Part shown: positions 7,688-51,100 of the stretch, piece after piece
How the letters are laid out: the number at the start of each line of letters is the position of its first letter
Numbering within the stretch: position 1 is the first letter of the stretch
NCBI GenBank assembly: GCA_951406725.2
Contig: OX597814.1
Coordinates: 190,588,001-190,652,000 of the forward strand
Length of the DNA stretch: 64,000 nt
Reading direction: 5' to 3'
From: Octopus vulgaris
Taxonomy: Eukaryota
The notes under the pieces: model-generated
Told to the model about the DNA's origin: nothing
The model's input: only the letters and a program-made list of their open reading frames with translations
Database searches by the model: none
Translations under genes and position numbers: made by a program

Positions 7688-7768
<81 letters not shown>

Positions 7769-7777
7769 ACACACACA
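7478..7777. repeat. Compound (TA)n/(TG)n/(AG)n/(AC)n microsatellite
   Basis: Directly visible; source of the YI-repeat ORFs. Confidence 0.95.
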
Positions 7778-7895
7778 AAAACTTAACATTTTTCACTCTA
7801 GTAAAGTGAGAAAAAGATAAAAAATTATAAAAAAGAAAAGAAGGAAAGAAAAGAAAATAGGCTAGATATTAATTAACTTTTTTTTAAATACCTAC

Positions 7896-8025
7896 CTTAA
7901 ATTCACAGTGGTCTCCAGTGTATTCGTTAGTACAGGTACAGTTGTAGCCGGCTACAAGATCATTGCAGGTACCATTGTTTATGCAGGCAGTATTGTTAGC
8001 ACAGTCATCAATATTATTTTCACAT
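7896..8025 (-). CDS. crb: crumbs exon 19, cb[46 protein letters not shown]
   Basis: cag/gtaggt, 130 nt, phase 2-0; completes the EGF left open by exon 18. Confidence 0.9.
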
Positions 8026-9063
8026 CTGCAGACAGTGACGAAAGCCATTAGAATTAGAATAATCATGAAAATACTTTTTCTACAGATAATTTTGTAGGGA
8101 TATCCATCCGTATATGATAGATCAACCCTAGCCATTTCTTTAAACAATACTCCCAGTTAAAGTAGATATCGGGATGACAGTCAGCAGTTGGCATGACTAT
8201 AGCGTGTTTCCTGGAGACTATCCATATTTCTAGATCATCATCTTGGGTAGAGGGGAAAGAAGTTTTGGTTTTAGATTCCTGTTTTTGCTTGTTTTTGTTT
8301 TACCAACTTCTTCCACCGCCAAACTTTTTACAAAACCATCAGATTTGCTTGGCTACAAGTACTAATGCTTACAAATCAGTGTGGGCTTCCCACACCTTAA
8401 TAGGATGAAATAAATCTGTCAGGTGGTCACAGGTGAAGTTACCAGCCAGCCACCCAACCAGCCAGCTAACTAGTCAGTCAGTCAGTCAGTCGGGCAGGTA
8501 GGCAGACAGACAGGCAGAAACAGCAGCAGCAGTCACACAAGGCCGAAAACTTCAAAAATAGCAAGGATTGTGAAGTCTAAGGAGGCAAGTGGTATATTTT
8601 AAAGCCTGTAGCAGCAAGCAGCACCTGTTATGGCATAAGTCAGGTTTAGGAAAGATGTCATGTACAATAAGGCATAACAGTCCATTGTTCTGAGACAGTT
8701 GTCAGGAGAGAAGAGAAAACCAGCTTCTAAATTACTCACAGTCGAAAATTAAAACACTGTAAGACACAGAGATATAATTCTTGGACAGAAAAATTTTTTA
8801 TGACAAAATATAAAGTAAAGGAAGTTATTATGAAAGTGTTACAGGCCTCTTACTACAGGTAAAAATAACATACAATAAGGGCAAATGGAGGGAGGGGGCT
8901 ATTAAGCTAATACTGACATACTACAGGTGGAACAGCTAGAACAGGCTTGTCTCAGTCAGTGACCTATTTGTGAATGTGTTCATTCACTTCAAGACCTCAC
9001 ATACACCCACACCTCTTCTTTTTATCCTGCCTGTTAACCTTGCAACTCTGTGGCAATCAATAC

Positions 9064-9098
<35 letters not shown>

Positions 9099-12000
9099 GC
9101 CACAATGAAGATATGTGACTGATCTACAAGGAGATAAAAGTTTAAGGAAGAGTTGAGGCTGAAAAAGAATTTTTAAATATTATGAATAAGAAATAAAACA
9201 AAACAGTAAATTCTTTTCTTTTCTTAGTGAACAAGAAACGAATGGTGAATTGAATTACAATACATAAATTAATTTAACGATTAATCTGAAACCGGTCAAC
9301 GACATTTGTATATTTTTAGCTAAGTATAGACACAAATAGAAGGTTTATTATACATGTATTCAGTTTGAAAGATACTAATGCCTGAGTAATTAACATCATA
9401 ATCAAAAGCAGACTTTCTTTATATGTGACTGATCTACAAGCTTTAAAGAATCCGACAACAGTTTCTTAAACCTCTTAATAGTAATTCTTCTAGTAAAAAA
9501 AGCAGGAAGACACTTGTGATGTTCACAGCATAGGAATTATGATAATACTCATAAGAAAGAACACAAGTGTTCAGGTATTTCCTGCTGAGCAAGGATAAGC
9601 TTCCAGCAAGAAAATATGCAATGTGGTTTCAATTTTTGGTGGTGCATATTATATTTCATGCATGTGCCGGAATGAACAGGAGCAGGTATGGATAGGTGCT
9701 GGCATGACTGTGTGGTTAAAATGTTTCCCTCCCAACCACATGGTTCTGAGTTCAGTCCCACTGTGTGGCACCTTGGGTAGGTGTTTTCTACTACAGCTCT
9801 GGACCAACCAAAGCTTTGTGAATGGATTTGCTAGATGGAAAGTGAAAGAAGCCCTTTGTATCATCATTAAATGAATTATTTTTTTTAATTAATTTTTTAA
9901 AATTAATTAATGAAATTACTGTATACAGTGCTCAGGTGCACCACAACTTGTCAAAAGTGCATATAAAGCATATGCAGTAATGTACAAATGTCTGGAAAGT
10001 GAGCAGTATATGAGTCAGATACATGCTTACATGTGTATGGAGGGGAGAAAATCAGGTGTAGTGTTGGCGAATCTCAGGAAGCATGGAAGTTTTGAAGGAT
10101 GCAGTGCTAACATCCACTTCACCATGCTTGCAGACGGAATTTGCTGAGTTGGATTTACCAGAGTCAGAAACCCTTCTTGTCACCAAAATTTACCTGTTTC
10201 CAAGGAAGGTTATATTTTCCCCTGACCAGAAATTTTTCCCTTGAAGACTGGAAATGAACAACCTCACTTATATGACGATGATGCTTATTTACAACCATCA
10301 CATAATGTCTAAACAAGGGTGTACATACACACACACACCACACATGCAAAAAGCACCATTTGAGCATGATCATTACCAGCGTCGCCTTACTGGCACTTGT
10401 GCCGGTGGCACATGAAAAAACATTCAAGCGAGGTCATTGCCAATGCTGCTGAACTGGACCTGTGCAGGTGACACGTAAAAAACACCATTTGAGCATGGCC
10501 GTTTCCAGTACCGCCTGACTGGCCTTCATGCCGGTGGCATGTAAAAGCACCCACTACACTCTCAGAGTGGTTGGCATTAGGAAGGGCATCCAGCAGTAGA
10601 ACCTCTGCCAGATCAGATTGGAGCCTGGTGCAGCCATCTGGTTCGCCAGTCCTCAGTCAAATTGTCCAACCCATGCTAGCATGGAAAGCGGATGTTAAAC
10701 GATGATGATGACGATGATGATATACACATATAAATACATACGTATGATGGGCTTCTTTCAATTTCCAACAACCAAATCCACCCACAAGGTTTTGGTCAAC
10801 CCAAGACTGTAGTAGAAGGTACTTGTCCAAGGACCAAACTCAAGACCTCATGGTTGGTAAACAAGGTTCTCAATCACACAGCCATGGTTACACCTATGAC
10901 TTTCGGAAACATTTTTTCACGCTCAGAGTTGCTGAAGCATGGAATAAACTGCCTGCGTCAGTTGTTGACTGACATGACACTGCATCCTTTAAGGCCCTCA
11001 TGCTTTCCGAAATCCGCCGAAACTACACCTGATTATATATACACTTTAGATGAGTTGTAGTGCACCTGAGCACTGTACACAATGTTTTATTATTATTATT
11101 ATCATTATATATATATATATATATTTAAACATAATAAATAACAATAGGGTAATAAGAAAAATTAATGAAATTATTATAAATGTCTTCCCCTTTTCAAGGA
11201 CCTTTTGTTAATCCCTACTCTTTGTTCATATGTATATGACAACACTCCATCTACTCCTTTAACCTTTTAGTTACCATATTTCTGTTGAAATCATTGCCTT
11301 TGTTTTAATTAATTTCAAATGTAACGAAGAATTTAGTAAAATAACACAAGCTGATGTTTGGAACAAAGATAAATGTGAAATTTTGGTGAAAGGTATATCA
11401 TGACAGAAGCGGCGAGCTGGCAGAATCGTTAGCACGCCGGGCGAAATGCGTAGCCGTATTTCATCTGCCTCTATGTTCTGAGTTCAAATTCCGCCGAGGT
11501 CGACTTGCCTTTCATCTTTTCGGGGTCGATAAATTAAGCACCAGTTACGCACTGGGGTCAATGTAATCGACTTAATCCCTTTGTTTGTCCTTGTTTGTCT
11601 CCTCTGTGTTTAGCCCCTTGTGGGTAGTAAAGAAATAGGTATTTTGTCAGCTGTTACTTTCTGAGTTCAATTTCCGCCGATGCCGACTTATCTTTTCATC
11701 CCTTCGGGGTCGATGTAATCGACTTAATCCCTTTGTCTGTCCTTGTTTGTCTCCTCTGTGTTTAGCCCCTTGTGGGTAGTAAAAAAATAGGTTTATCTTG
11801 ACAGCACCCACAAGACTCCTTCAAAGAGTCGAGGACCCAAGGAAAAGCAACACATACAACACATTCTCAGTTTAACACCACTGCATGGTCCTTGGGGGTG
11901 TATGCTGTTGGCAGAATTCATTGAATCTGTTACAAGCATTTGGACCATGTTTCCAGTTTGAAAACACGTTCTCCCTTCTTACCCACCAATCTAAAAGACC

Positions 12001-15000
12001 CTTTAATCGGTTGCGAGCTCTGTCCTTCCTTCCTCACAAAGTGATAAAATAAGAACAAAAAACAAACCAACATCCCAACAAGTTGAACTATATCTATCAG
12101 ACATTGACATACTATCCTAGGTCTTAAACCACCATAAATGCAATAAAACAGGCCAGTGTTAGCTATGGATTAAGATTAAACTGATATCTGCTCATTCATA
12201 TCAAGGCTACACACAGTTTGCCTCATCTTAACTCAAGGTCAACTTTTAAACTGGCCTTGCTGAAGGAGTCTGCAGCCCAGTCCAGAAAGATAGGAACTTA
12301 TAATAAACTATGAGGAATTTAGTCCACAACTTCATCATTTTACCATTTCTAATAATTGAATATCTTGTTTTTTTTTGTTTTATCTAGGTGTGGTGGGGAT
12401 GGCAAGTGAACATATATACATGTATATGAGTGTATAAATATACATACATTCACAGACAGATAGAAGTGCATGTGAATATACTTTCATTTATGTGTACTCA
12501 TGTAAATGTACATGTGTGTATATATGTGCATATGTGTGAATAATGTGCATGTATATGTATATAAATATATATACATATACACTCACATTCAAGTATCTGT
12601 GCATGTGTGTGTGTTGGCAAACACAGAAACCTATGTATATAACCTACGTAGATGTCTGCCTTAATCTATATTCAAAGCTAAGGAAATTAAATTGTTAATC
12701 TGCTTGGTGCCTAATAAGCCACAACAGCAGTTGGATGAAGAAGCATCAGCAATAAACTTTAATCCTTCAATCAGTGAACAGGATCAACGAGAAATGAGAT
12801 AATCCCTAACATTGAAACTGATCTACATTTTAATGCGGGGGGGAGGGGGGCAATAATACAGGGAAAAGACTGGGGAAGTGGAAGGTTTGGGGTGAGTAAT
12901 GGAGAGAGGATGGAGAATAGGGGACAGTAAATGGAAGGATTGAGAGTTAAAGGGTGATGAAAATTAGTGAGTAGAACACTGTTGGGGATGAGGTGTCTGA
13001 GGGATAAGGGTAAGGAAAAGGAATGAGGTAGTATGAGAGAGAGAGGGGAGAGATTGTATGTGTGTGTGTATCTGCATGCATGCACGTGTGTGTGCCAGTG
13101 TGTGTTACTGAGCCCTTGACTGTGTATGATAGTTGTAAACAAATTTTTTTTCTACCCACAAGGGGCTAAACATAGAGGGGACAAACAAGGACAGACAAAC
13201 GGATTAAGTCGATTATATCGACCCCAGTGCGTAACTGGTACTTAATTTATCGACCCCGAAAGGATGAAAGGCAAAGTCAACCTCGGCAGAATTTGAACTC
13301 AGAACATAGTGACAGACGAAATACTGCTAAGCATTTCACCCGGCATGCTAACGTTTCTGCCAGCTCGCCACCTTATGATAGTTGTAAACGAGTGTCACCA
13401 TCACACAAGCAGTCTCCTTCATTTCCAATCTTTTGTAAAAGCATGTTTGGCCATTGAGAAGTATTACTAGGAAACAGGTGAGTGTGGATGACAGGAAGAG
13501 CATCCAGCCACAGGAAAATCCATCTTAACAAACTCGAGCTCATCCATACAAGCATAAGAAAATGGACATTAAAATGATGATGATAATTAATAAGCTTCAA
13601 CAGGTGGTGGGGAGGGTTCCAAAAGGGGTCCCAGGGAGTAGCATTCCAGCCTTCCTGAGCTAGTTTTCCACCACATTTCTTAAAAATCATGGTAGAGGCT
13701 TTGATCTCAGGACCGCTCATGTCTAGAAACTGAGGTTGGGAGTAAGCAAGAGCATGCTCCTCGTAGAAAATCCAGCTCCAAAAAGGCCTCATGATAACAA
13801 GGGAGAATGGGCAACAACTAGCCTAAAGGTTGAGGTGGGTTGCAGCTGCCTAGCTCAGTTGCTATGGAATTGAGGTAGATCTGGCCACCCCCATTAATAG
13901 GGACAAAACCCAGACTTAAAACACTAGATGATGTTGATGATGAACAACATGCAAGGATAGATTGGATAAATCTGAAGTACTTAACATCCCTTGGTGCAAA
14001 TATAATATTCCAAATATCATGGAGAATACATTAGCTATTACTGAGAACAATGATGACAGCAATAACAACAACAACAATTTCTTTTACCTGGCACTGGAGC
14101 AACAGATAAGTGGGTGGATGGGGGTTTCAATAAACTTTATGGAAAACAGCAGAAGAGGAGACAACACCATCGCAGTAAAACAATAAAGAAGGATATTATT
14201 TTATTACTTATTGTGAAGACCCGACAAATGAAGTATGCTGTGACTGCGAAGACCCAACAAATAAAGTGAGTTCATGTCTCGCAGGACGGCCTTCTGTGCT
14301 AACCTTGGATCGTAGGGTGACCTGCTGTGCTTGAGGAGACCTATTGAGTCAAGTCCATCAACATCAAAATAAAAATCAAATGGATATTGTAGTTGTGATA
14401 CCCGTGCCGGTGGCACATAAAAGGCACCATCCGAACGTAGCTGATGCCAGCACCGCCTGACTGGTGATCGTGTCGGGGGCATGTAAAAAAGCACCAGCCA
14501 CTCATGGCCGTTTGCCAGCCTCCTCTGGCCCCTGTGCCAGCGGCACATAAAAAGCACCCACTACACTCACAGAGTGGTTGGTGTTAAGAAGGGTATCCAG
14601 CTGTAGAAACACTGCCAGATCAGACTGGAGTCTGGCACAGCCTCCTGGCTTTCCAGACCTGATCGAACCATCCAACTCATGCTAGCATGGAAAACGGACG
14701 TTAAACGATGATGATGATGTATTATAAAAAGATTCCAACCTGGGCCAAAGCCCACCCGCCACACTTCTTGATCTATCATCACTGCCTCAAGATCCTGGAT
14801 ACATTCCTGCCAATGTCTGCAATGAAGTTGTCAACATAAGTGTAACAACATTTTCCTCTTTTTACATCACAATGAAATAGGTTCTTCTGTCATATGTTGC
14901 TGCCATTTGCAGCATCCTTGTATAGCATGGATGTCAAAAACGTCTGCAAGTGTTGTAGGGAGATTGCAGCTGGTTGTACTGAAATTCACGATGAAGAAAG

Positions 15001-17007
15001 AAGCAGGTGACCATCAATTTCCGATGAGACAGTCGCAAAGATTGAGCAAATCCTGCATAAAAATCAGTGGATCACTTGGATATCTCCACATTTTGGTTCC
15101 TTGAGATTTCCCAAAGCACCATTCATAGGGTTTTGAGTGAAAAGTTACAATATTAGAAGGTGTGTGCAAGATGGGTCCCACAAATGCTCATAGAAGGCCA
15201 TAAGCAGCAAACCCACCTTATAGTCCAGACTTGGCACCCAGTGACTACATGTTCCCTAAGTTGAAAGAACATTTGACTGGAATGTGCTTCAGCAATGACA
15301 ACGGGGTGAAAGATGAGGTTCAACGCTTCCTCAATGACATGGCAATGAGCTGGTATGACATGGGCATACAAAAACTTCCCCAGCGCCTACAAAAATGCAT
15401 CGACTGAAATGGTGATCATATAGAAAAATAGATTAAGGCGGCAAGCTGGCAGAAACGTTAGCACGCTGGGCAAAATGCGTAGCCGTTATGTTCTGAGTTC
15501 AAATTTCGAAGAGGTCGACTTTGCCTTTCATCCTTTCGGGGTTGATTAAATAAGTACCAGTTACAGACTGGGGTCGATGTAATTGACTTAATCCGTTTGT
15601 CTGTCCTTGTTTGTCCCCTCTGTGTTTAGCACCTTGTGGGTAGTAAAGAAATAGGTATTTCATCTGCTGTTACATTCTGAGTTCAAATTCCACCAAGGTC
15701 GACTTTGCCTTTCATCTTTTCAGGGTCGATAAATTAAGTACCAGTTACACACTGGGGTCGATGTAATTGACTTAATCCTTTGTCTGTCCTTGTTTGTCCC
15801 CTCTATGTTTATCCCCTTGTGGGCAATAAAGAAATAAGAAAAATAGATAAATGTTCAAACTTTAAAATGATGTAAACATCATTGATAATAAAGGTTTCTG
15901 TGATTTCTAAATATTTTTGGAGACCCTACTTTTGAGATTACCCTCATACAATATGGATGATAAACTTCATCCTTCGTTCAGTTTAATACCAAGCTTAGCC
16001 TGTGAGTGTCTCTTGCTAAGTCCACTTTGTTGCAAGTACTGAAGCCAGACGTCCAGTCTGGGAATGAATTCTTCCTTTCATTCCACTAGGAGCAGGTATG
16101 GTTGTGTGGTAAAAAGCTTGCTTTGCAACCAGGTGGTATTAGGTTGAGTCCCACCATTTGGCACCTTGAGCAAGTATCTTCTATTATAACCCTAGGCCAA
16201 CCATTGCCTTGTGAGTGAAATTGGTAGACAGAAACTGTGAGGTAGCGAGCTGGCAGAAATGTTAGCACGCCGGGTGAAATGCTTAGCGGTATTTTGTCTG
16301 CCACTACATTCTGAGTTCAAATTCCACCAAGGTCGACTTTGCCTTTCATCCTTTCGGGGTCAATTAAATAAGTACCAGTTATGCACTGCGGTCGATGTAA
16401 TCGACTTAATCCCTTTGTCTGTCCTTGTTCGTCCCCTCTGTGTGTAGCCCCTTGTGGGCAATAAAGAAATAAGAAACTGTGAGGAAGCCCATATACGTGT
16501 GTGTGTGTGTATATGAGTGAATATGTGAGTTTTGTGTTTGTGCTGTATTTGTCCCACCAGCACCATCACTTGACAACTGGTGTTGGTTTGTTTAGATCCC
16601 TTAACAGTTCGGTAAAAGGGGCCAACAGAATAAGTACCAGGCTTAAAAATAAGTAGTGGGGTCAGTTTGCCCGAGTAAAACTCATCAAGGCAGTGCCCCA
16701 GCATGGTTGCAGTCCAATGACTGAAACAATGACTTGGCTGTACAGCCATACTTGCACCTATAGCTATTTTGGTGTGTGTTTTTAAACTATATATCCATTA
16801 CTCTTTTACTTGTTTCAGTCATTTGACTGTGGCCATGCTGGAGCACCGCCTTTAGCCGAGCAAATCGACCCCAGGACTTATTCTATGTAAGCCTAGTACT
16901 TAATCTATCAGTCTCTTTTGTCGAACCACTAAGTTACGGGGACGTAAACACACCAGCATCGGTTGTCAAGCGATGTTGGGGGAGACAAACACAGACACAT
17001 AAACACG

Positions 17008-17061
<54 letters not shown>

Positions 17062-20000
17062 CGATGGGCTTCTTTCAGTTTCCATCTGCCAAATCCACTC
17101 ACAAGGCTTTGGTTGGCCCAAGGCTACAGTAGAAGACACTTTGCCCAAGGTGCCACGCAGTGGGACTGAACCCAGAACCATGTGGTTGGTAAACAAGCTA
17201 CTTACCACACAGCCACTCCTACGCCATTCTAGTGTAATCTTTTCTTTTCTGAGTACCAATTAATGTCTTTAATCATCAGTTGTTTTCTTGATCTATTTAT
17301 AAAAGGTAAAGGGCACCCCCACCCTGCCTCCCGGTCATGAATGACCATGGGATTGCACCAAGAAAGTTCCCCTCCAAGGCACAAGTCCGGGCAAGGTCGT
17401 TTATAGAAGACCAGCACTCACCCATGCATATCAGCCTTCTCCTCCATGCCATTTCTTGTTTTAAGATAATCTAAAATAAAACTTATTATATTTCGTTTTT
17501 GGATTTAGTTTGCAAGATTCTTTATATGAGTTCGTGTGTTGAAGCATATTCTGTTGTGTCTGGGGAGAGTCATTTTCTTTTTGTGCCTTATAATGTAACA
17601 CACTCACCGGTAAAATTTCCATTTATTTTTATTTTCCTAAAATTTTCATTGTGTCTTGCAACCTTTTGAAGACTATTGAAAAGGTTGCAAGATGCAATGA
17701 AAATGACTCTCCCCCGACACAACTTAAATAAAACCTTCCTTCAAAACTGCATGTTGATTTATATTCCAAACGCTAGCTTGATAAAACCACAGCTTTTTTA
17801 GTAAATTATTCATTAATTTCAAAATTAAGTGAAGCAATGGCAGTGTATTTCAACAGAAATATAGTAGTAACAAAGGGGTTAAGGAAGTTCTGGTGCTACA
17901 TAAAAATCACCCAGGGCCGAACGTGGCCGATGCCAATGCCGTCTTGACTGGCTTCTGTGCCGGTGGCACGTTAAAAGCACCAGCTGATCATGGCAGTTGC
18001 CAGCCTCACCTGGCACCTGTGCCGGTAGCACGTAAAAAGCACCCACTACACTCTCGGAGTGGTTGGCGTTAGGAAGGGCATCCAGCTGTAGCAACACTGC
18101 CAGATCAGACTGGAGCCTAGTGCAGCCTCCTGGCTTCCCAGACCCCGGTCGAACCGTCCAACCCATGCTAGTATGGAAAGCGGATGTTTAACGATGATGA
18201 TGATGATGATTCATTAATTTCAAAATTAAGTGAAGCAATGGCAATGTATTTCAATAGAAATATAGTAACAAAGGGGTTAAGGAAGTTCTGGTCCCACATA
18301 AAAACCGCTAAGAACACTCTGTAAAATGGCTGGTATTAGGAAGAACATCCGGCCATAGAAACCTTGCCAAGTCAGACTGGAACCTGGTGCAGCTCCCATG
18401 CTTTCCAGCTCAAGTCAAACCATCGAACCCACACCAGCATGGAAAACGGATGTTAGATGATGATGGTGATGATAAAATTTAAGAGAATCATATGAATACA
18501 GACCTTCATTAAAGGAATGAAGAGTAACAAAAAATTTTAACAAAAAAAGTCATTTTCTATATAAACAGACTTACCTTAAACCTTCAAATCCTTTGACGCA
18601 GTCACAAGTAAATGAGTTTATGGAATCGTTACAGGAAGCACCATTCATACAGGGTTGACTCTCACACTCATCGATGTCTTTCTCACAGAATTCCCCAGCG
18701 TAACCAGCTACACAGTCACATTTGTATTTATTCCAAATGTCCTTGCAAGTGGCTTGATTCTTACACTTATTGTTGAGGCAAACATCTGCACTCAGACATC
18801 CCAATTGTATATTTCTTTCCCGCAACAGTCGATACTGCTGTGAACGGCTGCTATTGCTTGTGCCAGGCAACAGTGGAAGATGTTTACCATTGACACTCAG
18901 GTTTTTCATGCAACCAACAAACATTTCACCGACAGTAAAGTTATTTCTTGTGAAGAAAGTTGTATAGTTTATGCTAACGTTCGAAATACTGACAACTTTT
19001 ACTCCGTCTATTGTAATCCAGGTGTTATTCTCATTCCATGCAAGCACAAGAAAATGCCAAGCACCATCAGTAACATTTTCAGAAGCATCGCCACTGATGT
19101 TTCCAGCATCTATCTTCAGAATATTATTATGCAAATACACAGAAAAATTTGAATCTGTAGTTGTATCAATTGCAGAAAACAAGTAGCCTTGCTCTTCCCT
19201 TGTTCGGAAATGAACACTGAAATTCTGAGGGTCAGTTATATAAGGGGTTGGTTCATAGAGTACACTTGATGTTTTGTTAAATGTTGCTGTTACATAACCT
19301 AAAATGACAAAAACAAACAAGCAGCATTGAGTAATTGTAAAGATTTATTTAATATTTTATTCATTTAAAACAATCATGGAAATGATAATTGTTCGTCATT
19401 CTATAAAAGTAACTTCTATGATAATAAACACAAAATTCTGTCTGAGATCCCTGTATCTCAGCCAGCATTTGTTCTACACAGACATATAATACCTTTTTGG
19501 AATCAGGGTGATCCTGGGATAGAAAATCTGCCTTTTGCTTGGTTCTTGATCATCCACCATTGGGATCTGATTTAAAAGCATTTCGGTTGCTATTTCTAGC
19601 AGGTAAAGCTTGGCTGATTCACACCATCTTGGTTGGCGTTTGTCAGATGGCATCAGAGATCAAGAGTGAGATAAATGACATTTGCTTCACTAATTTTATG
19701 TCAAGATAAGAACTCTGGGACAAAATGGCCAACAGTTGGAATTCAAGGTGGGACTGGAACAATAGAATGATTGCCTTACAGAATTAATTCTCATCCATCT
19801 TTAACCTCTGATCAAACACCACCGGGGCATATAGTCATTATAGACATATTATAGCCATGCTATTTAGCTCTCTTTAGTTTTGGGTTGTAGGTCCAATTAG
19901 CCCTCTGCAAGAGCTAGCTTCAAAGTCTGCATGAAGTGAAGCTTTTAAGCTAGTATCTAATAAATAAGTCTTGGAGTCACCTAACTCTTTTGGTACTAAC

Positions 20001-21739: not shown

Positions 21740-24700
21740 GAGTGAGAGATCAGCTCATGCCATCAAAGTGACACTGGATATTATTATTATTATCAATATT
21801 ATGTAATAATACTGAAATAAAACATGTTTTATTGCTGAGAGAAGGGTTACTGTTAAATAAAGGGAAAAAATGTCAGACTCAACCTACATTCATATCCATC
21901 TTCAGTATTTCCACAACGAGTATTATTAGGACAGTTGGCATAGTAACAGAAGTCTATATCTGTGCAGTTCTTACCAGTAAAACCAGCAGTGCAGTTGCAA
22001 CTACAAAAGAAGAAAAAAAAAATTTAGTAAAAAGTAAAGTTGTTAGAGCAGATAATTGGTAGCATCATTAGCGCATCAGATAAAATGCCTACAGTATTTA
22101 ATTGTGGCCCTTTATGCTGGTCTGCTTCCAATGATGGAAATCTTCATTGATAGAAATTTACGTTGGTTGGACAACAACAGAATCTCCAGACAACTTCTTT
22201 ACTTCCTTTACTTGCAACTAAGCAAGGAGAAAAGAAACCATGGAAGACCTACGCTGAGATTAAAAGATACTGCAAAAAGGAATATGAAGTGGAAAGGAAT
22301 TGATCATAAATAAGAGGCAAACTCAAGTGAAGAACTGACCAATATGGAGAAAACTTAGCAATTCGTGTCAAAGCCATGAACAGCCATAATCGTGACAACT
22401 GACTGCTAATGACAAATATTTTTGAGTTCAAATCCTGAAGAGGTTAACTTCACCATTTATCCTTACCAGGAGGTCATCATCGTCATCGTTTAACTGGCAT
22501 GGGTTGGATGGTTTGACTGAAGACTGACAAGCTAGGAGGTTGTTCCAGGCTCCAATTTGATCTGGCAAAGTTTCTACAACTGGATGGCCTTCCTAATGCC
22601 AACCACTCCGAGAGTGTAGTGGGTGCTTTTTACATGCCACTGGCATGGGGGCCATTCAGGCGGCACTGGCATCAACCCAGTTTCATAAAGTATTAAGCAA
22701 GTAGTGGAGCCAATTTAACATTCATATAAAATTCCAATGAAGATATATTGTCTAGTGCTTTGTTGAGTTCATATATTGTCTGTCCTTGTTTGTCCCCTCA
22801 ACGTTTAGCCCCTTGTGGGCAATAAAGAAATAAGATTTGTTAACATGTTGAACAAAATGCTTAGAGGTTTTTCTTCTGGTTCTAAGCTCTAAGTTCAAAC
22901 TCTGACACAGTCGATTTTGTCTTTCATCCTTTGGGGGTCAAAAAACAAGCACCAGTTGAGCAATAGGGGTCAAGAAAATTTATTAGCCTCCACCCCAGCC
23001 CACCAAAATTTCATAGGTGCACACAAATATATAAATGGTGGGTTTCTTTACAGTTTTGGTCTCCCAACTCCATTTACAGGGCATCCAGCTATAAAAGCCA
23101 TACCAAAGGCTCCCTCACCAGTACTGGTGAAATGTAAAAAGCACAAGTCTATTCTGTAAAGTGGTTAACATTAGGAAGAGTACGCAGCTATCAAAAACCA
23201 TGCCAAAACAGACAGTGAAGCTTAGTTCAGTCCTCTGGCTTACCAATTCCTATCAAACTGTTTGATCCATGCCAGCATGGAAGACAGATGTTAGATGTTG
23301 ATGATGATCATCATCATCGTTTAACGTCTACTTTCCATGCTAGCATGGGTTGGACGATTTTGACTGAGGGCTGGCAAACCAGATGGCTGCACCAGGCTCC
23401 AATCTTGATTTGGCAGAGTTTCTACAGCTTGATGCCCTTCCTAATGCCAACCACTCCGAGAGTGTAGTGGGTGCTTTTTACGTGCCACCGGCATGCGGGC
23501 CAGTCAGGCGGTACTGGCAATGACCTCGCTCGAATCTTTTTACACATGCCACCAGCACAGGTGCTAGTAAGGCAACGTTGGTAACGATCACACTCGAATG
23601 GTGCCCTTTTACGTACCACCAGCACAGAAGCCAGTTGGCTGCTCTGGCAATGATCACGTTCAGATAGTGCTCTTGGCACCCTACTAGATGACATTTGCTC
23701 AAGCTGCTACAAAGTGGGACGGAACCCAAAACCACATGGCTGTTAAGTGAACTTCTTAACCACACAACTTTCTTCCGGTTTCTAATTACCAAACCCATTC
23801 ACAAGGTTATGGTCAGTGCGGAGGCTATAGCAATGGACTGAACCTAAAACCAATGAATCAAATTCTGAATACAAAATTTATACTTACATATAACGTTCAA
23901 ATTCAATATACTGACATGTAGAATTGTTGCCACATGGTTTATTTAGCTTACAAGGATCATTTTTAACAGCACCTGACTTAACATTTGCTGTGGCAGTCGG
24001 TAGTAAAGTGTTTGGTAACCTCACAACATTGCTGGTATTATTATTAAAGACAACTGACATGTTATTTAATGCCATATCTTGTAGAATTCCACGGAAATTT
24101 TCAACAGGTTGTATACTTCTGCGCTTTCGGGTACTTGAACTGCCAGGTTTCTTACCTACAGTCAATATACTCGTATTCAAGGAACATCGATCATTTAAAT
24201 TCTGTGTTATATTGAAAGAATCAACAACCAAGGTGATGTTTTCAAGAAACACCTTTACTTCTAAAAAGTGTTTTCGGCCATCATCATATTTGGTTGAGGT
24301 TTTATAAATGAAATCCTTACAACGTTTCATTTCTGTGACAATACTGCCATCCTGTAGTCTCAGGCTGAAGTATGATCCAGAAGTGCTTCCTGTTTGGTCA
24401 GAATCACTGAAATATGCCACCTGACCATCACTATAGCGAGTGATGAAGTAAAAGGACAACTCAAGGTTTGATTGTAACTTGTCTTGGATTGTTGTTAAGT
24501 TGTATTCAGAAAAACTTAATGTCATGTTGAATGCAAAGGTTCCTGCTGTAACTTCTGCAAAAATAAGATTGACAATGTACATATTAAAACTGATTAGTCA
24601 TAGATAGATAGATAGATAGATAGAAGGAGAGGGGAGGGAGAAAGAGAGAGAGTGTGTGTGTGTGGTTGCCCAATAAATTTTCATGAATCAGAAAAAAAAA

Positions 24701-27700
24701 AAAAAAACTCAGGCACTCATATATGAGGCAATATAAGTATCAAAATTTGATACAAGGCCAGCAATTTTGGGGGAGGTATTAAATCAATTACATCAAACCC
24801 CAGTGCACAACTGATACTTATTTTATCAACTCTGAGAGGATGAAAAACAAAGTCTACCTCGGCAGAATATGAACGAACTGACAAAATGCCACTAAGTATT
24901 TTTTCCCAACATGCTAATGATTCTACCAGCTCACCACTTTAGATATGAGGTACTATTAGTCTCATAACAGCAGGTTATTGAATGGTTTCATACTGATAAC
25001 TTTGCAGAATTTGAGGTATAAATTTGCAATCATCAGACATGGCTGAATAGGAAAAGCAAGAGCTATGGTCTCTTTGCAACTGGAGGCAATGGGATGACTG
25101 TTAATTTACATTTTCATATCTGTAAGGTTATTGGCAAGGAGGACAGAAGGAGGGGGAGAGGAAGGAAGGAAGAAAACAGGAAGGAAAGACAGACAACAGA
25201 CAGGAAGATAATCAGACAGACAGACATGAGTGTGTGTATCTGTGTTTGTCCCCTGCCACTGCTTGACAACCAGTGTTGGTGTGTTTACATCCCTATAATT
25301 TACCAGTTCAGCAAAAGAGACCTATAGAATAAGTACCAGTCTTAAAAAAAGATAAGTAATGGGATCATTTCATTTGACTAAAAATTCTTTATAGTGGTGC
25401 TCCAGCATGGCCAAAGTCTAAACAAGACTGAAACAAGAAAAAGAATATGGAAACATCTCTCATCATAACTTACCGCCTTGACAAGAATCTCCAATATATG
25501 GTCGGTCGCATATACATTGTTTTTGAAACCAAAGATCAATGCAGCTGCCTCTTTCATTACAGGAATCACGTAAGCACTGGTCACTGCGTGGACAACTCAT
25601 GGTGACATGTTCAACTTTTGAAGCATTGGTAGCCAAGAGGACATTCCCATTAACAGAAACATCTTGTAGACAACCAATAAACGGTGCACTTGGTTGTTTA
25701 GAATTTGGCGATAAGTTACTGTGCAGTTTTCCAAATGAAACTTCTCCAGTTGCTGCTTCTGTTAAATCAAACTTCTTTAAGTGGCCGCCAATCTGTACAA
25801 AGAGCTCTTTTGAAATAAACTCAAACTTAATAAATTGCCAAGCAGAATTATTGACTGTATCGAAGTTTAAATTGGTAATGTTATCATTCACAAGAGCAGG
25901 CTGACCTTGTCTCAGCTGAAAGGTGAGGTATTTGTTATTTTGTAATACAAACGTGGAAACAAGAATATTTCCCAATGTTGTTTGATATTGAAATTCTATT
26001 ATCAGTTTATTGGTGGCAAGGGCTTTTGTTTCTAAAGAAGAAGAACCATTGAAAGACATTGTGGTAACGACTTGACAGTCTTTTCCATTAAAACCATGCA
26101 AACAGCTGCATGTGTAATAATGTTGTGAGTTATTTTCATCAAAGAACGGGTTGCAGGTGCCATTATTGAGGCAAGGGTTACGATTGCATCCAGTCAACTC
26201 AACAGAACAATTCTTTCCACCATACCAAGGTTTTGAGGGACCTTTTAAACAGGTACAATTATAGATTCCATCGCCATTGTAACACTTTGATCCATGCTGG
26301 CAATAACTTCTGGAACATTCATCAATATCTGTATCGCAAAGTGCACCTTCATATCCTTCCTCACAATTACATTTTGCATAGCCTATGTAATCACTACAAT
26401 TACCATGCACACAGTTTAAAGACAAGCATTCGTTGATGTCTTGGGAACAGTTATGACCTTGAAAGAGAAATAAAGAAAAGATGGCATTAATTATTTTCAT
26501 GACTGGGCACAATCTCTTTTAACTTCCAAAATACATCAACTGATAGAAACAGTTTACTAAATGGTCAAAAAAAAAAAAAACCATAACTGAGTAAAGATGA
26601 ATTAAACAATAATATGTGTATGTTGCATTATTTTCTGAGTTCAGTTCCTGTTTCTAATATTGTGCTAGCCAGTTTATCTGAAGGATTCCTTCTTCAGTGC
26701 AATCAAGGAACAGTAGCAGATAGTATATATATCCTTTTCTTATTTCTTTGTTGCCCACAAGGGGCTAAACATAGAAGGGACAAACAAGGACAGACAAACA
26801 GATTAAGTCGATTACATTGACCCCAGTGCATAACTGGTACTTATTTAATCGACCCGAAAGGATGAAAGGCAAAGTCGACCTCGGCGGAATTTGAACTCAG
26901 AACGTAGCAGCAGATGAAATATAGCAACGTGAAATAAAATGTTTTGCTCAAGAACACAACACACAGCCCGGTCTGGGATTCGAACTCACAACCTCACAAT
27001 CGTAAGCTCAACACTAACCACTGAGCCATGCACCTTCACAGACATATTTAAACATAAGCTGCCGGACGAGATAGTGAAGATGCCGATGACCGCTCAGTTC
27101 AAAGTCTCTCTTGACCAGAAATGGCCTGAACTCTTTGTATGACTACCCTCCCTGTACATAATTCCCTGTCCCCCTACATAGCCTTGCTTTTGCTTTTTGA
27201 ACCAATAAAAATTGAATTGAATTGAATTGAAAAAAAATATATCCTATTTCTCTCATTTATTTTTTCTCTTCTCTTATTATTTGCCTTCTTATTCAAATAC
27301 AGTGTTAGGTTCTAAATTCTGATACAACAACCAAGTTCAACACAAGACACCTGAAGATGGGTGGAGCATGCAACAGCTGTAATATAGTGAAAGAAACAAT
27401 CAAAATGAGGACACTAGTCTGAGTAATATGAACACACTATGTTGGTTTTTTTGACATTACTACAGAGAACTCTCTTCAAAGGAAATACAAATTTAATTGT
27501 CATTATCTGTTTCTTTATTACCCACAAGGGGCTAAACATAGAGGGGACAAACAAGGACAGACAAACGGATTAAGTCGAATACATCGACTCCAGTGCGTAA
27601 CTGGTACTTAATTTATTGACCCTGAAAGGCTGAAAGGCAAAGTCGACCTCGGCGGAATTTGAACTCAGAACGTAACGGCAGACGAAATACGGTTATGCAT

Positions 27701-48100: not shown

Positions 48101-51100
48101 TGTTACCTGTAAAACCTTTAATACATGCACATGTATAATTATTTACTAAATCAGTACAAGTACCACCATTTTGACAGGGCCCTGAAAGGCATTCATTGAG
48201 CTCCTAAAAAGAAAAGAAAGGAACAAGGTATTCAAAAGTTAGAGAAACTATCAGCTTCATATTTTTTTTCATTTTTTAAATAAATGAAATAAATCTTCTA
48301 AACACAATCAGTCGTTATATATACATACATCATTTAACGTCCGCTTTCCATGCCAGCACGGGTTGGACGATTTGACTGAGGACTGGTGAACCAGATGGCT
48401 GCACCAGGCCCCAATCTTGTGTAAGAAAAAAAAAGATAAAGACCCATCCCTATAAACTAGCCACCACCAACCAATCATGTTAATCATATAACCAATATAG
48501 ATTATCAATATTGCCACATATATATATATGTTGTTGTGGCCCCCTTCGGTCATGACTGACCATGGGATTACACCAAGAAAGTTACCCTCCGAGGCTCAAG
48601 CCTGGGCAATGTTGTTTATGGAAGACCAGCAGTCGCCCACACATACCAGCTACCCCTCTCCATGCCACCGATGTTATCCAAGGGAAAGGCAAAGGCCGAT
48701 ACAGCTTGGCACCAGTGGTGTCGCAGCTCATTTATTAACGTGCAAGTAGCTGAGTACTCCACAGACACGTCTACCCTTAATGTAGTTCTCAAGGAGATTC
48801 AGCATGACACAGAGTGTGACAAGGCCGGCCCTTTGGAATACAGGTACAACAGAAACAGGAAGAAAGAGTGAGAGAAAGTTGTGTTGAAAGAGTACAGCAG
48901 GGTTCACCACCACCCCCTGCTGGAGCCTCATAGAGCTTTAGGTGTTTTCACTCAATAAACACTCACAATGCCCGGCCTGGGAATCGAAACTGCGATCCTA
49001 TGACTGCGAGTCCACTGCCCTAACCACTGGGCCATTGCACCTCCACACACATATATATATATACACACATATATTTTGGTGTGAATTTGTTTTTTTTACA
49101 TGGTGCCAAGTTTACAATAATAATGGTATTTTTATATAAGATTAAAGCTTATGGTGATCACTGCACAATGACTAAAGAAAACAGTCTAAGAAAGGAGCAT
49201 ATAAGCACTTGACAGAAAAAAGGCTTTCCTATCCGCGTGGGAGTTGAACCCAAACCCACATACATATTTATATGTTCTTTGGTTGGCAAAATTGTTAGGG
49301 CATTGGACAAATTACCTTGTAGTATTTATTTTGGCTCTTTACCTTCAGAAATCTATCTGAGGTCAACTTTCCTATTCATCTCACCTAAGTCAATAAAATA
49401 AAGTACCAGCCAAGTACTGGTGCCTAAATTAGAAATATTTATTATTATTATTGAGTGAGAGAGCAATGCATATCATCAAAGTGACATTGGGGTACAAATA
49501 TATGAAGCCCAGTATACCCATCATAACTACCTGTCTGATAAGGGTACACCAGGCATATACATCACAACCATATGTGCACAACTTGCAGGCGGGTCCCACT
49601 TAGAATTTTCTTCAGGTTAAGTTGCCAATTCCACTCAAAAGGTCCCTGAATGTTTCCAGGGGTGAATTATTCAAACCCCAAAGATTCCTATCAACACAAT
49701 GCTATGATGTTCCCCCACTACTCCTGCTTGTGATCAGAGATGCACATATCGTCAGCCACTAAGGGACATGTTCAACTAGTTAAGGTCAAGCAAGTGACAT
49801 GCAAATCTGTGGTACTGAGTACAATATTTACTGTAGCCCATCTTTTATACCAAGACAAAACATGTACATAATACTTCCAATCAGTTAAGATCAGAAATCA
49901 TGAGAACCACTGCCTGGTTTATTTAGGGCATTTATTATTATTATTATTATTATTATTGTGAGATCGTTGCCAGAGCAACAAGCTGGCCTCCGTGCCGACG
50001 GCACGTTCAGCACACCATTCAAGTGTGATCGTTACTGCGTAGCCTTACTAGCACTTGTGCTGGTGGCATGTGAAACATTCGAGCGAGGTCGTCGCCAGTG
50101 CCACTGGACTGGCTCCTGTGCAGGTGGCACATAAAAAGCACCATTTGGGTGTGGCCGTTGCCAGTACCACCAAACTGGCCCTCGTGCCGGTGGCACGTAA
50201 AAGCACCCACTACACTCTTGGAGTGGTTGGCATTAGGAAGGGCATCCAGCTGTAGAAACTCTGCCAGATCAGACTGGAGCCTGGTTCGCCAGGCCCCAGT
50301 CAAATCGTCCAACCCATGCTAGCATGGAAAACGGACATTAAATGATGGTGATTTATAGTGTTGGTGCCATATAAAAAGCACTCAGTCCACTCTAAAGTGG
50401 CTGGTGTTAGAAGGGCATCCAGCAAAAAAGTTCCCTGCCAAAACAGAGAGTGAAGCCTGGTGCAGTCTTCTACCAAACCAGCCCCGCCACATTGAAATTT
50501 TATGGTCATTTATATGTATCTACCAACACAAACTACAATAAATGACTGCTAAGATAAATATATTTTATGAATAAGTTAAAATTTAAAATGGAAAAAAAAT
50601 GTTAATACTAACCTCACACATGGGACCAGAGTATCCTTCTTTACATTGACAAGTATAAGAGCCAAAAGTATCGACACATCTGGATCCATTACAAGGTCTA
50701 ACTAATTCCTTACACTCATCTACATTTTCAGAGCAGGTCTGACCTTTGTAGCCTAAAACAGAAGATGCAAACATATCAGCTTTACTGAACAATAATAACA
50801 AAGCAGGCTGAAACGCAGACAAATTTTGGATGTACAGATTTTGATGTACAGATTCAAAAAATAATTTTTTGTAACTAAACACTTTCAAATTTTGGACACT
50901 GGTAGAATGTGTCATATAAAACATGTTTTACTCTTAGCATTTTTGAGAAAAACTTATATTTACGAAGTAATTTCACATTAAAGTCTTTACCTTTTGACGT
51001 ACAGATTTATAAAATAATTTTTTGTAACTAAACACTTTCAAATTTTGGACACTGGTAGAATGTGTCATAAAACATGCTTTACTCTTAGCATTTTTGAGAA

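Follow-up and report, generated by a model that had tools for sequence, protein, structure and literature searches.

The locus described here raises the question of whether a single crumbs gene can yield, besides the long Crumbs protein, a short form that begins at an internal start. The gene lies on the minus strand of a 2.8-Gb genome, mostly inside the window (the whole stretch of 64,000 nucleotides analyzed, G000:C1:190588001-190652000), where EGF exons and three laminin-G exons were found. Our analysis indicates that an internal-start Crumbs isoform, free of laminin G and with its own predicted ER-targeting leader, is quite likely produced. Coding exons were counted within the window, "exon 19" being the 19th of them; at least one more coding exon lies about 35 kb beyond it. 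The following exons are central to the question (window positions):

7896..8025, minus strand: exon 19, the first EGF repeat of the short form, common to the long form (Pfam EGF, E=6.5e-7), with a GT donor after 7896.
18575..19298, minus strand: exon 18 of the long form, with the last laminin-G domain and EGF repeats (Pfam Laminin_G_2, E=3.3e-10), spliced to 8025 and left out of the short form.
23887..24554, minus strand: laminin-G exon of the long form (Pfam Laminin_G_2, E=3.8e-9).
25466..26457, minus strand: EGF and laminin-G exon of the long form (Pfam Laminin_G_2, E=1.2e-6).

As in other long Crumbs forms, the EGF repeats were interspersed with laminin-G domains, and every laminin-G exon was located upstream of the proposed short-form start. 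A further laminin-G-like exon of the long form was present about 35 kb upstream of the window (G000:C1:190686624-190687112, minus strand); a hydrophobic run precedes it in frame, possibly as the final part of the signal peptide of the long form. No tail exon was found within the window or the next 20 kb; the exon encoding the ERLI tail was located about 70 kb downstream of exon 19 (G000:C1:190526154-190526015). Since this was the single ERLI-tail match in the genome among 48 scored candidates, both forms appear to share one tail exon.

The original prediction held that the reading frame of exon 19 stays open upstream of its acceptor to an ATG at 8135 (gaaATGG). We found this frame to be in phase and free of stops, with the same translation. 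Two features were defined:

8026..8135, minus strand: leader-coding stretch, with ATG 8135, a basic n-region and a hydrophobic core at residues 22–35; intronic in the long isoform.
8026..8027, minus strand: dual-use acceptor AG, the splice acceptor of the long form, which in the short form belongs to codon 37.

The first 21 residues of the leader include four K/R and two D/E (net charge +2). The hydrophobic core that had been claimed was recovered as 14–15 residues with Kyte–Doolittle values of 3.35 (11 residues) and 3.13 (15 residues). The leader thus combines a basic n-region with an h-region of 7–15 hydrophobic residues, as Sec signals do. Small residues at −3 and −1 mark the cleavage site of signal peptides; T34/C36 or C36/C38 fit this rule here and in the squid protein discussed below, and organism C, a relative, has P34 and Y36. 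The acceptor had been described as poorer in T runs than most others, and its T fraction of 0.40 was indeed the lowest among the 28 coding acceptors scored in this gene, measured over the 20 nt preceding the final NAG. An in-frame ATG upstream of the acceptor was found in 7 of the 28, and a leader of at least 12 residues in 5. Adding a KD11 of at least 2.5 left 2/28, so the caveat that T-rich intron ends may read as hydrophobic by chance holds; with at least 15 residues and a KD11 of at least 3, only the acceptor of exon 19 (1/28) was left. Judged on sequence alone, the leader frame goes only modestly beyond chance. Because chance leaders occur, such evidence cannot decide the matter, and the weight of the case falls on transcript contigs and the squid protein.

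Seventeen RNA-like runs matched 7700–8400, and six of them, from five studies and with three organism labels, were examined (X1, X2, X3, X9, X13, X17), together with two of the three runs of unclassified kind (X18 and X20). No record says RNA, and the RNA status of the runs is a guess; contigs across exon junctions do show spliced molecules. The minimum extent of the proposed first exon is as follows:

7896..8499, minus strand: extended first exon of the short isoform (X2 record 13; X3, 7998–8485; X9, 7998–8462; X17, 7998–8447).

In X2, record 13 is one contig running from 8499 to 7896, and its loose end is made up of the opening 30 nt of the following exon, which lies 42 kb downstream (G000:C1:190554033) and was found independently of this contig. 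Contigs upstream of 8025 were present in all six RNA-like runs and were continuous with exon 19 or overlapped it in four (X2, X3, X9, X17). The X3 and X9 pieces shared 30 nt with the exon 19 contig; the piece from X17, which represents organism C, was spliced to the same exon as in X2. Among the pieces listed for X1 and X13, those upstream (8084–8385 and 8150–8351, respectively) were detached from exon 19. The extension thus sits on spliced transcript contigs under three organism labels. The long-form junction (18575 to 8025) was assembled as well, in X1 and X13 inside a single contig, in X3 and X9 through a 28-nt overlap. Contigs of X3, X9 and X17 start at 8027, where the two paths merge. Exon 19 is therefore reached by two 5' paths, from exon 18 or from the intron end, and the frame is open to the tail. 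Intron-end sequence on a spliced contig next to an assembled long-form junction is the pattern of an internal-promoter isoform: at least 474 bases of intron end precede exon 19 in spliced transcripts because a second promoter likely lies in that intron. We infer this promoter, since contigs are graph paths rather than molecules and show neither strand, start nor level.

The six 5' ends of the extension contigs were scattered over 8351–8499, with no matching loose end among those listed; not falling at one base, they are a weak hint of a transcription start. X2 had a further piece at 8507–8715, and a short repeat at about 8470–8520 could hide a joint. Farther upstream, depth in the bin 8562–8952 was 0 in four of four runs (X1, X3, X9, X13), X17 was uncovered at 8542–8760 and X2 past 8715, all on contigs that show presence and not absence. 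Contig depths (X2, 28 vs. 3.9 upstream of 8507; X3, 8.5 for the extension and 5.6 for exon 18) were not used for isoform ranking. The near-identical DNA run X18 crossed the same stretch unspliced, in one piece. X20 (organism E, about two differences) misses 8026–8105 and was set aside as uninformative.

A counterpart was found in squid. When the 45-residue tail was used as query, five proteins came up among 22 candidates. One of them, P0027 (454 aa), clusters with the CRB of Euprymna scolopes (AQM40270.1, UniRef A0A1Q1MQR3, 459 aa). This nearest named homologue, together with the genome size, points to a cephalopod, probably an octopus, as the animal studied here. AQM40270.1 and two Logan-derived members of the cluster open with a hydrophobic run (KD11 3.31), which closes with T-x-C-R-C immediately ahead of the EGF corresponding to exon 19; in the squid CRB, a basic n-region comes before this run, and the leader frame is open for 52–57 codons. 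Pfam recognized EGF families and no laminin G in the squid protein. Its layout is that of the predicted short form (a leader before the exon-19 EGF, an EGF-only ectodomain, a transmembrane helix and an ERLI tail), with 47% identity over the best 359-column local alignment. It differs in a longer n-region, octopod-type and squid n-regions barely aligning, and in missing precisely those 79 residues that a single 237-nt exon encodes, which gives 8 EGF repeats instead of 10. The C-R codons in the present genome spell the acceptor itself, so the shared T-x-C-R-C suggests a dual-use acceptor in squid too. The squid CRB is the strongest evidence for a functional leader over a by-product. As a deposited squid Crumbs shows the same layout, the short form is likely old. 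Together with the spliced contigs, this layout supports the earlier proposal that one gene may yield a short Crumbs without any laminin-G domain. The squid record is named simply "CRB", although its layout suggests the short isoform; 3' probes or antibodies would for this reason not separate the two forms. A paper by Peyer et al. (2017; doi 10.1007/s00427-017-0576-5), which we take to be linked to AQM40270.1, is reportedly on squid crumbs and may already discuss the short form.

Conservation was assessed in organism C, which is about 7% diverged (of 441 letters, 33 differ and 9 are gaps). It keeps the ATG and, as the original prediction had suggested looking for in a relative, an open frame, 8026–8135 containing neither stop nor indel; all six indel events lie at 8252–8376. 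Eight substitutions were listed at 8028–8135, eight further differences near contig ends standing outside this listing. Six of the eight change a residue (Y8F, G11R, K15T, I17F, T34P, C36Y), and the two silent ones both lie in the core, one of them (8051) being also found in X2 and X18. The synonymous bias once expected across the leader was thus not seen, with only residues 18–33, the leader core, unchanged. Divergence of the leader was 7.4%, vs. 4.8–10.4% in the UTR, and T34P and C36Y spoil the most obvious cleavage site. Under eight random substitutions, the simulated chance was 0.60 for keeping the ATG and frame and 0.03 for leaving the core unchanged, the core window having been picked after seeing the data; the simulated chance of no indel in the leader was 0.19. 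Conservation in organism C is weak support for the leader at best.

Upstream of the ATG, two features were predicted:

8136..8499, minus strand: predicted 5' UTR with five upstream AUGs (8339, 8241, 8238, 8225, 8194).
8565..8603, minus strand: weak candidate core promoter, with a TATA-like word at 8603 and an initiator-like word about 30 nt downstream at 8573, a pattern match only.

Both words are frequent in AT-rich DNA and make no more than a weak candidate. A sigma-70 promoter scan was disregarded as inapplicable to an animal.

The upstream AUGs bear on the best-surviving alternative, according to which the short transcript is real and mostly untranslated, or translated from M24 (8066) or M30 (8048), so that the 37-residue leader would not be the functional N-terminus. 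We consider this improbable. The five upstream AUGs count against efficient initiation at ATG 8135. The frame from 8194 (43 codons, 8194–8063, minus strand) overlaps ATG 8135, its stop overlaps the M24 ATG (ATGA), and, judging from the substitutions listed, organism C has this frame at unchanged length. The five upstream AUGs occur there as well, including one with a good context and one that overlaps the start. However, ATG 8135 is conserved, and its context is the better one, with A at −3 and G at +4. AUG 8194 lies inside a 14-codon frame that starts at 8225 and stops 46 nt short of 8135, so that ribosomes might skip AUG 8194. The 52–57 open codons in squid also argue for translation of the leader, and a start at M24 would still yield a 12-residue hydrophobic N-terminus.

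It is highly improbable that the upstream cover comes from an unspliced or partly retained intron of the long transcript, with a leader that arises by chance when the intron end is read as protein. Several observations are compatible with this: contigs cannot show single molecules, the X1 and X13 pieces are detached, an X2 piece reaches 8715, two acceptors in 28 give a chance hydrophobic leader, and the leader diverges at nearly the UTR rate. Nevertheless, X2 joins the extension, and not exon 18, to spliced exon 19; the same stretch was assembled in organism C; in the squid protein, the leader at this acceptor is open and hydrophobic; and the exon 19 acceptor is the least T-rich of 28. The least probable account of all, with 8499–8026 as an internal exon to which an upstream non-coding exon or exon 18 is spliced at an acceptor near 8420–8580, has in its favor AG dinucleotides at about 8577, 8550, 8470, 8466 and 8416 and the 909 joints and 5116 loose ends that exist besides those listed for X1, X3, X9 and X13, but X2 and X3 contigs pass 8470 without a loose end, X2 record 18 is unbroken over 8550–8577, no joint was found among those listed for X2 and X17, and exon 18 contigs reach 8025 directly or through the 28-nt overlap in four of four runs. 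A link from exon 18 would introduce a premature stop, so that the long form would be decayed or secreted; with an upstream non-coding exon, the short protein would be unchanged.

For the internal-start isoform, nine exons were found beyond the window (78, 154, 114, 132, 237, 105, 272, 76 and 140 nt), all GT-AG and in phase. The unbroken 515-codon frame predicts a 515-aa protein consisting of the leader, about 10 EGF repeats (9 by pattern and one atypical by eye; about 410 extracellular residues), a transmembrane helix and the ERLI tail, with 19 N-glycosylation sequons. The putative helix is encoded by the 76-nt exon (G000:C1:190534555, KD12 3.59), in phase with both neighbors. As is characteristic of the Crumbs family, this single predicted helix precedes a short cytoplasmic tail that carries a GTY FERM-binding motif and terminal ERLI. 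The EGF repeat at G000:C1:190543154-190543050 has two extra cysteines, and its acceptor ends in AAG, not YAG.

The 237-nt exon missing from squid CRB encodes two EGF repeats (G000:C1:190546216-190545980). An X3 contig ends one base past the exon preceding it and an X2 contig one base past the exon itself, suggesting alternative splicing at both of its ends. It is probably a cassette, given the squid protein without its 79 residues and the X3 contig end; skipping it would give 436 aa and 8 EGF repeats.

Two protein searches recovered nothing bearing this leader. With the leader and exon 19, none of 13 candidates scored among proteins of 140–2000 aa. A profile-free search of the first 50 residues against 1.84 billion representatives gave three matches, all to repetitive unrelated proteins. 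Exon 18 retrieved 24 proteins, none named cephalopod, in a size range that full-length forms (>2000 aa) exceed.

Internal-start Crumbs forms have precedents in zebrafish and mammals, and the squid sequence is in the databases already. CRB1-B of vertebrates keeps its laminin-G domains. One study ascribes to it a putative internal promoter and a unique first exon with a predicted signal peptide, and also a swapped 3' exon, resulting in a different intracellular domain (PMC7335077). Compared with CRB1-B, the form described here keeps the canonical tail, and its first exon arises by extending exon 19 in the 5' direction across a dual-use acceptor. CRB1 database transcripts with alternative starts are tabulated in PMC5380682. 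Zebrafish Crb2b-sf has an intronic alternative transcription start and is otherwise identical to the long form (PMC7044448, PMC12510390); it lacks the first 11 EGF motifs and keeps laminin-G (PMC7044448, PMC12510390, PMC11129452, PMC5786287). It resembles our form as a short isoform from an internal start of a long crumbs gene, whereas only the first 11 EGF motifs are dropped there and all laminin-G domains here.

CRB3 and C. elegans CRB-3 are products of separate genes, about 100 aa long, with a short ectodomain without recognizable domains (PMC4359734). They share with the present form the absence of laminin G and a conserved FERM- and PDZ-binding tail, but ours has 8–10 EGF repeats and comes from the long gene. 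The label "CRB3-like" in the original prediction has to be dropped: about 10 EGF repeats are predicted in some 410 extracellular residues, which is no tiny ectodomain, the protein has a predicted 515 aa (459 aa in squid), and exon 19 onward is common to the long gene. The same paper mentions C. elegans EAT-20, a Crumbs-family protein with three EGF repeats and a conserved tail (PMC4359734), which differs in being an 808-aa product of a separate gene and not an isoform. The literature searched, largely in partial texts and covering few subscription papers, gave no description of a short cephalopod crumbs isoform. Vertebrates and nematodes split long and short Crumbs among separate genes, whereas here one crumbs gene apparently serves for both. 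If true, the choice of promoter gives a form free of laminin G, whose leader is written over a functioning splice acceptor, and the locus offers a natural test of the role of the laminin-G block: an identical tail and juxtamembrane EGF repeats, minus laminin G.

The short protein may be produced as follows. Transcription would start at about 8450–8570, and the ribosome would pass the five upstream AUGs to initiate at ATG 8135. The hydrophobic core would be bound by SRP, and the 8–10 EGF repeats would be threaded into the ER. Most likely, the leader would then be cleaved near C36/C38. Such a cut would take off C38 or fall next to it; in the long form, this residue is the sixth cysteine of the preceding EGF, and in the short form it is left orphaned. 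Retention as an uncleaved anchor is the somewhat less probable outcome; P34 and Y36 of organism C, which fit cleavage poorly, would speak for it. Cleaved or anchored, the protein would have its EGF block in the lumen and its tail in the cytosol. The Crumbs tail binds Moesin/Yurt/Expanded, Stardust/PALS1 and Par6 and functions at the apical membrane. There, the short product would recruit FERM and PDZ partners as the long form does, minus the laminin-G surface. With the same tail and no laminin-G, promoter choice would therefore uncouple polarity scaffolding from long-range extracellular adhesion.

A more far-reaching reading is doubtful: octopods and squids would have kept the promoter switch since their split, the squid CRB would be the short form, some tissues would make the short form only, and the leader would stay as an uncleaved anchor, producing a two-pass protein with a loop of 8–10 EGF repeats and a polarity tail. 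The literature examined, in the parts covered, describes no two-pass Crumbs topology.

Several minor observations were made elsewhere in the gene. The intron before exon 19 contains dense high-copy interspersed repeats (window 9735–18336), which pick up contigs of other loci by the thousand. A 334-codon frame in the 42-kb intron that follows exon 19 resembles, by eye, a LINE reverse-transcriptase fragment (L002:8638-9639, minus strand). A second hydrophobic leader of 31 residues, rich in F and L (G000:C1:190550656-190550564), has its ATG in frame with a downstream EGF exon and probably comes about by chance in a T-rich intron end. At window positions 50923–50753 (minus strand), 57 codons, mildly hydrophobic (KD11 1.77), are open from an ATG before the acceptor of an EGF exon.
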